64,000 nucleotides of DNA, from the IMG/VR virus record IMGVR_UViG_2939127364_000001, one strand, 5' to 3'. Below the pieces are notes generated by a model. It saw only the letters and a list, made by a program, of their open reading frames with translations, did no database searches and was not told the origin of the DNA. The DNA is from a virus. Taxonomy: Duplodnaviria > Heunggongvirae > Uroviricota > Caudoviricetes. Of this stretch, positions 38,649 through 44,765 are shown piece after piece; the first letter of the stretch is position 1; every line of letters starts with the position of its first letter. The translations under genes and the position numbers were made by a program.

Positions 38649-40211
38649 ATGAAAATGACAAGTATTCAACAACGTGCAGAGCTTCATCGCCAGATCTGGC
38701 AAATTGCTAACGATGTCAGGGGTTCAGTCGATGGATGGGATTTTAAGCAGTACGTTTTGGGCGCGCTTTTTTACCGTTTTATCAGCGAAAATTTTTCCAG
38801 TTATATTGAAGCCGGTGATGACAGTATCTGTTATGCGAAACTGGATGACAGCGTAATTACTGATGACATTAAAGACGATGCCATCAAAACTAAAGGCTAC
38901 TTCATCTACCCCAGTCAGCTTTTCTGCAACGTAGCTGCGAAAGCAAATACTAATGACAGACTGAATGCAGATTTAAACAGCATCTTCGTTGCTATCGAAA
39001 GTTCTGCTTACGGTTATCCTTCAGAAGCTGACATCAAAGGTTTGTTTGCTGATTTCGATACCACCAGTAACCGCCTGGGTAACACCGTTAAAGATAAAAA
39101 TGCCCGCTTGGCTGCGGTTCTGAAAGGGGTTGAAGGGCTAAAACTTGGTGACTTCCATGAACATCAGATTGACCTGTTCGGTGACGCCTATGAGTTCCTG
39201 ATTTCTAACTATGCGGCGAATGCCGGTAAGTCCGGCGGCGAGTTCTTTACACCGCAGCACGTCTCTAAGCTGATTGCACAACTGGCTATGCACGGGCAGA
39301 CCCACGTTAACAAAATCTACGACCCGGCAGCAGGCTCCGGTTCGCTGTTGTTGCAGGCGAAAAAACAGTTTGATGACCATATCATCGAAGAAGGTTTTTT
39401 TGGTCAGGAAATCAACCATACGACCTATAACCTGGCGCGTATGAACATGTTTTTGCACAACATCAACTACGACAAGTTTGATATCAAGCTGGGTAATACA
39501 CTGACTGAGCCGCACTTCAGAGATGAAAAACCGTTTGATGCCATCGTTTCTAACCCGCCGTATTCGGTGAAATGGATTGGCAGCGATGACCCGACGCTGA
39601 TTAACGATGAACGTTTTGCCCCGGCTGGCGTTCTGGCCCCCAAATCCAAAGCTGACTTTGCGTTTGTATTACATGCGCTGAACTATCTTTCGGCCAAAGG
39701 TCGCGCTGCGATTGTCTGCTTCCCAGGCATTTTTTACCGTGGCGGCGCGGAGCAGAAAATCCGTCAGTATCTGGTCGACAATAACTATGTCGAAACCGTG
39801 ATTTCACTGGCACCGAATCTGTTCTTTGGCACCACTATTGCCGTCAATATTCTGGTGCTGTCTAAACATAAAACGGATACCAAAGTTCAGTTTATTGATG
39901 CCAGCGAACTGTTCAAAAAAGAGACTAACAACAACATTCTGACCGATGCTCATATCGAACAGATTATGCAGGTATTTGCCAGCAAGAAAGATGTTGCTCA
40001 TCTGGCGAAATCTGTTGCGTTTGAGACTGTTGTCGCGAATGACTATAACCTGTCGGTGAGCAGCTATGTGGAAGCGAAAGATACTCGCGAAATTATCGAT
40101 ATCGCTGAGCTGAATGCTGAGCTGAAAACCACGGTCAGCAAAATCGACCAGTTGCGTAAAGATATTGATGCGATTGTTGCTGAGATTGAAGGTAGCGAGG
40201 TACAGGCATGA
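38649..40211 (+). CDS. hsdM: Type I restriction-modification methyltransferase subunit (type IC family)
   Basis: N-terminus [25 protein letters not shown]; N6-adenine MTase motif NPPY (IVSNPPYS) and AdoMet motif [10 protein letters not shown]. Confidence 0.9.
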
Positions 40212-41527
40212 GCGAGCTGAGTTATCTGGAAAAACTGCTGGATGGGGCTGAGGTTGAGTGGGTAGCATTAAATAAATTAGCAACTTTTTTAAAAGGGAAG
40301 TCTTTACCTAAAGAAAAAATAACTCCAGATGGCAATAGATATTGTATTCATTACGGTGAGCTTTTCACTCATTATGGTCCCATAATTGACAAAGTATGCT
40401 CAAAAACAAACCAAGCAATCAATGAGTCAATTCTATCTGAAAAAAATGATGTTCTAATGCCAACGTCAGACGTTACACCAAGAGGTTTGGCTACAGCTAG
40501 TTGCATTCAAGAAAGTGGCGTTATTTTAGGCGGCGATATTTTGATTATTAGATGCTCTGGTGTTGATGGTAGATATCTAAGTAATTTCATAATAAATAAC
40601 AAAAAAAAGATATTGCAAATGGTTAAAGGTTCTACTGTTTATCATTTGTATGCTAAAGATATAGGTAAATTACTTATCCCCATCCCTTGCCCCAACAACC
40701 CGGAAAAGTCGCTGGCTATCCAGTCTGAAATCGTCAGGATTCTGGATAAATTTACTGCACTTACCGCTGAGCTTACCGCTGAGCTTAGCATGCGTAAAAA
40801 ACAATACAACTACTATCGCGACCAGTTGTTGAGTTTTGATGATGAGCAGGAAAAACCTATTTATCTGGAAAAATTGCTGGATGGGGTTGAGGTTGAGTGG
40901 TTGCCATTGGGGAAACTAGGTGAATTAGTTCGTGGAAATGGATTGCCTAAGTCTGATTTTACCGAATCTGGGGTTCCTGCCATACACTATGGTCAGATAT
41001 ATACTTTTTACGGATTATCTACTGAAACAACAAAGTCATTTGTTTCCCATGAAACGGCGAAGAAGCTTAAAAAGGTTAACTCTGGTGATGTTGTTATTAC
41101 TAACACAAGCGAAAATTTTACTGATGTTGGTAAGGCGCTTGTTTATCTAGGTAAAGAGCAAGCTGTTACTGGTGGCCATGCAACTATTTTTAAGCCAAAT
41201 AGCACTATTATTGGGAAATACTTTGCCTATTTCACGCAAACGGATTCTTTTGCAAATGGGAAAAGGAAATACTCCAAGGGAACTAAAGTAATTGATGTGT
41301 CTGCATCGGATATGGCGAAAATTATTATCCCTATCCCCTGTCCGGAAAATCCGGAAAAATCCCTTGCCATTCAGTCTGAAATCGTTCGGATTCTGGATAA
41401 ATTCGACACCCTGACTAACTCCATCACCGAAGGTCTCCCGCGTGAAATCGAGTTGCGCCAGAAACAATACGAATACTACCGTGATTTACTGTTCAGTTTC
41501 CCAAAACCTGAAACTGTCAGTAATTAA
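40208..41527 (+). CDS. hsdS: Type I R-M specificity subunit with two target-recognition domains and central TAEL-TAEL repeat
   Basis: Duplicated conserved regions ([12 protein letters not shown] / [12 protein letters not shown]; [25 protein letters not shown] twice); central [11 protein letters not shown]; start overlaps hsdM stop. Confidence 0.85.
40760..40783 (+). repeat. Two tandem 12-bp repeats (CTTACCGCTGAG) encoding TAEL-TAEL in the HsdS central spacer
   Basis: Codons read L-T-A-E-L-T-A-E-L in the hsdS frame. Confidence 0.8.
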
Positions 41528-44600: not shown

Positions 44601-44765
44601 ACGTCTTTAAAACGCGAATACGCCACCGAAAATGGCACAGAATTAAACGAGACATTACCAAAACTTAGTCCGTTAAACCCGCAATATAAAACGAAAAAAC
44701 AGACCGTTTTCCAGAAAATCGTCACGTTTATTGAAAAGTTCAAAGGAGTAGGTGGGCAGATATAG
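41649..44765 (+). CDS. hsdR: Type I R-M restriction endonuclease/translocase subunit
   Basis: 1038 aa; N-terminus [25 protein letters not shown] as I recall for EcoR124 HsdR; SF2 motifs HTTGSGKT and DECHRSQ. Confidence 0.9.

Follow-up and report, generated by a model that had tools for sequence, protein, structure and literature searches.

A type IC restriction-modification system of the EcoR124 family as cargo of an Escherichia coli SSU5-like phage-plasmid

The 64,000-nucleotide stretch of viral DNA in IMG/VR record IMGVR_UViG_2939127364_000001 (hereafter the window) carries three genes, hsdM, hsdS and hsdR, that very probably form a functional type IC restriction-modification (RM) system; they are accessory genes and lie in a variable cargo slot of an Escherichia coli SSU5-like phage-plasmid. 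By each criterion that can be tested on sequence, the locus is a complete member of the type IC, or EcoR124, family. The system is already known and annotated, and is an ordinary member of a well-characterised family on an element class reported to carry it; that an SSU5-like phage-plasmid carries this textbook defence module matters little beyond correct annotation. Judged from its modules, the distinctive part here is hsdS, a less common mix of known parts. The locus also illustrates the exchange of the type IC module and of its parts (target recognition domains, TRDs, and half of hsdR) among E. coli replicons, the partners being P1-like phage-plasmids, SSU5-like phage-plasmids, IncF plasmids and chromosomal islands.

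Gene content, family assignment and expected activity

All three genes lie on the plus strand. The hsdM open reading frame (ORF; 38649-40211) encodes a type I N6-adenine methyltransferase subunit of 520 aa and matches TIGR00497 at 2.7e-196; in a sister plasmid, PGAP starts this gene at the second ATG, 38655. The specificity subunit gene hsdS (40208-41527; 439 aa) was recognised from its ORF, from two stretches matching Methylase_S in Pfam (3.5e-22) and from PADLOC, and the helicase-nuclease subunit gene hsdR (41649-44765; 1038 aa) from its ORF and a full-length match to the EcoR124 structure 2w00_A, with a TIGR00348 match at 2.2e-230. Pfam also detects N6_Mtase (1.8e-121) and HsdM_N in HsdM, and HSDR_N (1e-48), SWI2_SNF2/ResIII, a T1R_D3-like domain and EcoR124_C (PF12008, 7.2e-72) in HsdR, and the PADLOC calls for the three proteins are MTase_I, Specificity_I (8.6e-144) and REase_I. 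Chance is no explanation for family matches of this strength, which lie far beyond it.

For HsdM and HsdR alike, identity with the crystallised subunits of EcoR124 is about 99%. HsdM differs from EcoR124 HsdM (7bst_D) at 6 of 519 residues, and HsdR aligns end-to-end with 2w00_A (2281 bits), from which it departs at 13 positions among its first 1010 residues; the original prediction, made from the letters of the window, had noted an EcoR124 likeness at the N-termini of both proteins, and the likeness is borne out. The nuclease residues of the PD-(D/E)xK motif (D151, E165 and K167) are all present in HsdR, as are the motor motifs Walker A (GSGKT, 310-314) and DECH (408-411), and HsdM has DPAAGSG at aa 225 and NPPY at aa 302. 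With three intact ORFs, matching family profiles and all catalytic motifs in place, the earlier claim of a complete type IC system in M-S-R order stands, and the same gene order was found in every relative locus fetched. Within a type I family, HsdM and HsdR are more than about 70% similar (PMC10030836), which is the case here with EcoR124; the classical criteria are genetic complementation and antibody cross-reactivity (PMC2481252).

Among named systems, the closest are EcoR124I and EcoR124II of plasmid R124, the type IC prototype (PDB 2w00, 7bst), which have the same M-S-R order; their replicon is an IncF plasmid, whereas the genes here lie on an SSU5-like phage-plasmid. EcoKI, a type IA enzyme, shares the M2S1/R2M2S1 architecture, the bipartite target and ATP-driven translocation, but its genes stand in the order R-M-S, the match of its HsdM is weak (E = 4.8e-18), TAEL repeats are missing from its HsdS and its restriction alleviation depends on ClpXP.

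The enzyme mechanism is established for EcoR124I and is inferred here from the identity of about 99%. The sequence ATGA at 40208-40211 holds both the hsdM stop and the hsdS start, at exactly the positions given in the original prediction, and this overlap is consistent with translational coupling of the two genes. Co-translated in this way, HsdM and HsdS would assemble into an M2S1 methyltransferase. Its target would be bipartite, with a single adenine methylated at N6 in either half; TRD1 would read one half-site and TRD2 the other, and two TAEL repeats in the connecting helix would set the spacer between them. HsdR, translated from its own ribosome-binding site (RBS), would join in two steps, the R1M2S1 form translocating with no cutting and the R2M2S1 form cutting. 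On meeting an unmethylated target, the complex would pull in DNA at the expense of ATP and cleave it remotely. Establishment in a naive host would proceed through slow assembly from R1M2S1, not through ClpXP proteolysis, and assembly-based restriction alleviation has been described for type IC systems (PMC12707154). The system would destroy incoming unmodified phage and plasmid DNA and mark the phage-plasmid's own DNA, so that the suggested defence against other mobile DNA is supported as the standard inference for such a system.

A recombinant specificity subunit

The conserved regions of HsdS (N-terminal, central and C-terminal) match EcoR124 HsdS (7bst_A) nearly residue by residue. Both TRDs differ from those of 7bst_A, and the target here is therefore expected to be other than GAA N6 RTCG. 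The protein is built from two leader-TRD-trailer units, with a 13-residue leader at aa 6-18 and again at aa 219-231, and a 26-residue trailer at aa 157-182 and again at aa 374-399; in the DNA these units are visible as the internal direct repeats D1 and D2. TRD1 occupies about aa 20-156 (40265-40675, plus strand) in a protein alignment of seven alleles, and TRD2 occupies aa 232-373. HsdS has 439 aa here against 404 aa in EcoR124, the difference being due to the leader and trailer that accompany the second TRD.

Two tandem 12-bp repeats at 40763-40786 (plus strand) encode TAEL at aa 186 and aa 190 of the central helix. TAEL repeats in the central conserved region of HsdS are a type IC feature (PMC3874165, PMC10030836), and their number sets the spacer of the target, two repeats giving N6 and three giving N7, as known from EcoR124I versus EcoR124II and from EcoDXXI hybrids (PMC3874165). 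From its two repeats, the HsdS described here is expected to have an N6 spacer, as EcoR124I has. A published EcoR124II primer that spans the TAEL repeat, accgctgagcttaacatgcg (PMC10644984), has one mismatch to 40775-40794 of the window.

The source of this allele became apparent in the comparison with the closest record, plasmid NZ_OW849379.1 (L001). The window is 100% identical to this plasmid up to 40837, the last codon of the central helix, and again from about 43200. Between these points TRD2 cannot be aligned, and the hsdS-hsdR gap together with the first 1.5 kb of hsdR is 89.5-98.8% identical. Because identity of 100% flanks this divergent stretch on both sides, a tract of about 2.4 kb was exchanged; it reaches from TRD2 across the gap into hsdR, of which it includes the 5' half. 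Within hsdS, the segment replaced relative to the plasmid (40838-41389, plus strand) holds the second leader, TRD2 and most of the second trailer (nt 41327-41404). The comparison shows the predicted recognition specificity to have arisen by homologous exchange with another type IC locus.

Both TRDs occur elsewhere in E. coli. TRD1 is found in the TRD1 position of the closest plasmid and of a chromosomal locus (L004), and TRD2 lies in the TRD1 position of L007 and L008 in the seven-allele alignment. The P1-like IncY plasmid CP057381.1 (L006) encodes an HsdS of 447 aa with three TAEL repeats (L006 5539-6882) and has TRD2 in both positions. TRD2 also forms natural E. coli half-size HsdS proteins of 226 aa, made of leader, TRD and C-terminal helix, such as WP_315689243.1. 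TRD exchange, TAEL slippage and half-subunit dimers all belong to the known type IC repertoire (PMC3874165). The distribution of TRD2 suggests recombinational switching between forms with asymmetric and palindromic targets, and, in a more speculative and unlikely reading, the leader-TRD-trailer repeats of hsdS could allow natural switching, in both directions, between a full-length protein with an asymmetric target and a 226-aa half-size protein with a palindromic one.

A chimeric HsdS of this kind, whose TRD2 slot is filled by a TRD1-type module, might be a poor partner for HsdR in assembly, and the locus would then be restriction-inactive or act mainly as an epigenetic methylase. The recombinant nature of the allele speaks for this possibility, as does its rarity: when an identical hsdS was sought, no complete E. 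coli genome and no PLSDB plasmid covered at least 80% of the gene, and its specificity is for that reason probably uncharacterised. Such a loss of restriction is nevertheless very improbable, given that the three ORFs are intact with complete catalytic residues, that a leader-TRD-trailer unit in second position also occurs in the full-length alleles L004, L006 and L008, and that engineered type IC TRD swaps and half-subunit dimers are active (PMC3874165). Moreover, the exact HsdS protein is already held by NCBI in nine E. coli entries, and the allele is therefore not new to the databases. A functional RM system thus remains our preferred reading. The recognition sequence of this TRD pair would define which DNA a lysogen excludes. 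Transfer of a half-site from EcoKI TRD1 was tried and rejected, the similarity to TRD2 being weak (E = 0.00016) and the two domains too distant.

Hairpins and a candidate promoter between hsdS and hsdR

hsdS and hsdR are separated by a gap of 121 bp (41528-41648). On its plus strand, hairpin 1 (41543-41567; GACCGGG-N11-CCCGGTC) has a 7-bp stem and an 11-nt loop that holds a -35-like TTAACA, and hairpin 2 (41592-41620; GCCGGAAG-N13-CTTCCGGC) has an 8-bp stem and a 13-nt loop and stands directly 5' of the hsdR RBS. The two hairpins announced by the original prediction are thus both real, although they lie 5-8 nt downstream of the approximate positions it gave, and the separate RBS it assigned to hsdR is present as a Shine-Dalgarno sequence, AAGGA (41638-41642, plus strand), 6 nt before the ATG. 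The gap has a folding energy of -36.7 kcal/mol (z = -3.4), and none of 200 shuffles was as stable. Each hairpin occurs once in the 64-kb window, where 0.00-0.01 matches are expected by chance, and a dispersed repeat was rejected on this count.

We aligned 12 such gaps: those of the window and of six further E. coli loci (L001, L003, L004, L006, L007 and L008), of a Klebsiella allele (L005), and of Enterobacter, Serratia and two Erwinia loci. The AGG core of the Shine-Dalgarno sequence (41639-41641) is identical in all 12. The stems are paired in 87.9% of cells, a value reached by 0 of 500 shuffles, and pairing falls to 24-53% when the partner is shifted by 1-3 columns. Over the 12 loci, which span E. 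coli to Erwinia, hairpin 2 is paired in 93.8% of cells; its loop varies, and one pair is changed on both sides. In hairpin 1, the innermost pair of the closest plasmid shows a G-C to A-T exchange. Two hairpins also form in each of the more distant gaps (Enterobacter, two Erwinia and Serratia), with sequences of their own. Given the conservation of the stems across the 12 gaps and the folding of the distant gaps into two hairpins as well, the hairpins are probably functional. Two observations temper this view. The covariation sample is small and closely related, and its changes on both sides of a pair, seen in 4 of 15 stem pairs, are matched by 67 of 500 shuffles. In addition, hairpin 1 is absent from the Klebsiella allele and so cannot be essential.

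The hairpins might instead be incidental inverted repeats of no function, such as traces left by past recombination or by an embedded cargo gene since lost. This notion draws on the dispensability of hairpin 1 in Klebsiella and on the composition of type IC loci at large, most of which hold a cargo gene at this position. In a sample of 80 type IC hsdR loci, with one genome per species, the hsdS-hsdR interval measures 490-1865 bp in 60, mostly about 1.0-1.3 kb; 5 others have a gap of 78-125 bp, 3 have abutting or overlapping genes and 12 could not be scored. The long intervals hold a cargo gene, encoding a PrrC-like AAA_13 protein, Fic/DOC (with HTH), RhuM, a DUF4143 ATPase or a Macro domain protein, and the embedding of prrC between hsdS and hsdR is well known (PMC3874165). 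With 60 of the 80 intervals long and occupied, the short hairpin gap is a minority state in this sample, where the two-hairpin gap of the EcoR124 lineage is shared only by Enterobacter, Erwinia and Serratia. An incidental origin is nonetheless improbable, since hairpin 2 retains its stem as far from E. coli as Erwinia although its loop diverges, since each of four divergent gaps folds into two hairpins, and since the cargo gene of prrC-type loci has no hairpins on either side. In those loci the embedded gene abuts both hsdS and hsdR, and hairpins as the ends of a cargo cassette were rejected on the same grounds.

Type IC loci that contain an embedded gene, EcoprrI (prrA-prrB-prrC-prrD) among them, share the HsdM, HsdS and HsdR families and the gene order of the present locus. 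In these loci, hsdS and hsdR are separated by the gene of an anticodon nuclease (PrrC, AAA_13) or by one of the Fic, RhuM, DUF4143 or Macro type, where the window has only the hairpin gap; no prrC-like gene and no other ORF was found in its 121 bp.

The original prediction took the hairpins as a sign of an independent hsdR promoter. A candidate is indeed present, the sigma-70-like TTAACA-18-TATTTT at 41555-41584 (plus strand), which is the sole promoter-like site in the gap and from which transcription is predicted to start at the base of hairpin 2. In the Klebsiella allele, TTGCCA-16-TATACT lies as far from the hsdR ATG as the E. coli hexamers do. Kulik and Bickle are said to have mapped separate promoters for EcoR124I in 1996. 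The hairpins in themselves, on the other hand, are no evidence for a promoter, and three further results count against one. The candidate matches the consensus at 9 of 12 positions, and a scan of the region gave 12 sites against 13.1 expected from shuffles. No comparable hexamers were found in the Enterobacter, Erwinia and Serratia homologues. The prrC-bearing relatives leave no space between hsdS, the embedded gene and hsdR, so that not every member of the family has an intergenic hsdR promoter. With hexamers at chance level and missing from three genera, an independent hsdR promoter is plausible but unproven.

The same findings lend some weight to a single operon transcribed from upstream of hsdM, in which the hairpins would be RNA elements, and not promoter markers, that lower HsdR output relative to HsdM and HsdS. 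They might do so as a partial terminator or attenuator, as an RNase processing site, or as a 3' or 5' stabiliser. Stems that are conserved while loops vary, the hairpins of Enterobacter, Erwinia and Serratia without recognisable promoter hexamers, the prrC-type relatives without intergenic space before hsdR, and promoter-like matches at chance level would all fit such an arrangement. Neither hairpin, however, resembles an intrinsic terminator, as no T-run directly follows either of them. The run of seven T at 41581-41587 comes only 13 nt after hairpin 1, which is therefore not a canonical terminator, and a terminator scan found no terminator-like site in the hsdS-hsdR gap. A search of Rfam with the whole window and both intergenic regions matched neither the hairpins nor the hsdM leader to a family, and its sole hit was a chance one to SNORD98 (E = 0.41). 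Taken as the full account of the locus, the single operon is a tentative alternative that we rate somewhat below an even chance; on the narrower choice between a weak hsdR promoter between the hairpins and a single operon with attenuation at the RNA level, the balance is roughly even.

If the promoter between the hairpins is used, hsdR would be transcribed weakly from it into a message that carries the stem-loop of hairpin 2 at its 5' end, and the hsdMS message would be capped or attenuated by hairpin 1; we hold these steps with lower confidence than those of the enzyme itself. A more speculative thought, and an unlikely one, is that the conserved hairpin 2 before the hsdR RBS exerts an undescribed post-transcriptional control that delays or limits HsdR on entry into a naive host. 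Were this true, such control would supplement the restriction alleviation that type IC systems achieve through assembly.

The host element, its cargo slot and the distribution of the module

Its backbone identifies the window as part of an E. coli phage-plasmid of the SSU5 supergroup. Over the structural genes (window 1-22000), identity is 96.9% with phage CMS-2020a, 97.5% with phage Cyrano and 80.5% with SSU5. The closest record, NZ_OW849379.1, is a 110,667-bp non-mobilizable IncFIB plasmid whose PGAP gene order (metG, apbC, S24 peptidase, theta, hsdM, hsdS, hsdR) matches that of the window. On the strength of this similarity and synteny, the phage-like element of the original prediction can be specified as an SSU5-like phage-plasmid. 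RM and PrrC systems have been reported in SSU5-like phage-plasmids of E. coli and Shigella (bioRxiv 2025.09.12.675607).

Homology to Cyrano ends at 37986 and returns at 44853, and Cyrano carries 5.9 kb of unrelated cargo (Ea22-like, DUF4942) between these points. Because the backbone breaks there around unrelated genes, 37987-44852 is a variable slot, which in the window contains the hsd module together with a theta-like gene. The portable part of this cargo, defined by the extent shared in pairwise blastn with the P1-like phage vB_EcoM-673R5 (L003), is 38550-44765 on the plus strand. The match to the chromosomal island L004 begins at 38632, and both matches end at the hsdR stop codon, 44765. 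The 352 bp between the theta-like gene and hsdM (38297-38648) hold no convincing ORF, Rfam match or called promoter; as only the last 100 bp or so travel with the module in P1-like elements, the hsdM promoter probably lies within 38550-38648.

P1-like or P1-flanked type IC modules, such as those of vB_EcoM-673R5 and pRHB28-C11_2, are the same portable module at 95-97% identity, over a stretch that begins about 90 bp before hsdM and ends with the stop codon of hsdR, and have the same 121-bp gap and both hairpins. They adjoin phd-doc and have other TRD combinations, while the module of the window adjoins humD and the theta-like gene in an unrelated phage-plasmid backbone. The contexts of the module include P1-like phage-plasmids, where the module lies beside phd-doc (L003, L006), an IncF plasmid in which it is flanked by P1 phd-doc DNA (L007), and chromosomal islands (L004, L008). 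Type IC loci had been linked to P1 DNA by 1997 (Tyndall et al. 1997, Mol Microbiol 23:729, as cited in PMC519025).

The hsd module found a match in 1748 of 5426 complete E. coli genomes, in 997 of which (about 18%) at least 80% of the query is covered, and in 1318 PLSDB plasmids. Its description as typically plasmid-borne holds as far as occurrence on plasmids goes, but the module is about equally chromosomal, with 1141 places on chromosomes against 1028 on plasmids in the complete genomes. The exact HsdS (AYN92443.1 / WP_122057112.1) and the exact HsdR (AYN92444.1 / WP_122057114.1) have earlier records, and AYN92443.1 and AYN92444.1 lie on a 113,610-bp E. coli plasmid, where they are already named as type I subunits.

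Several neighbouring genes were noted around the cargo. To its left lie metG, for methionyl-tRNA synthetase (34229-36391, minus strand), an ApbC/Mrp iron-sulfur carrier gene (36420-37520, plus strand) and, adjoining the side of the hsd module, a HumD-type S24 peptidase gene (37557-37946, minus strand). The gene resembling DNA polymerase III theta and P1 Hot (38045-38296, minus strand) is absent at this position in Cyrano. At the right junction, the 158-aa ORF at 44824-45300 (minus strand) is an N-terminal 150-aa remnant of a DUF4942/DNA methyltransferase-like gene (about 550 aa; phrog_6263), truncated here and intact in Cyrano. Farther downstream are a P1 TciA-like gene of the TerB/tellurite-resistance family (phrog_632; 47224-47649, minus strand) and a TciB-like (DUF3927) gene (47066-47224, minus strand), a pair that is likewise found in Cyrano and in the sister plasmid.

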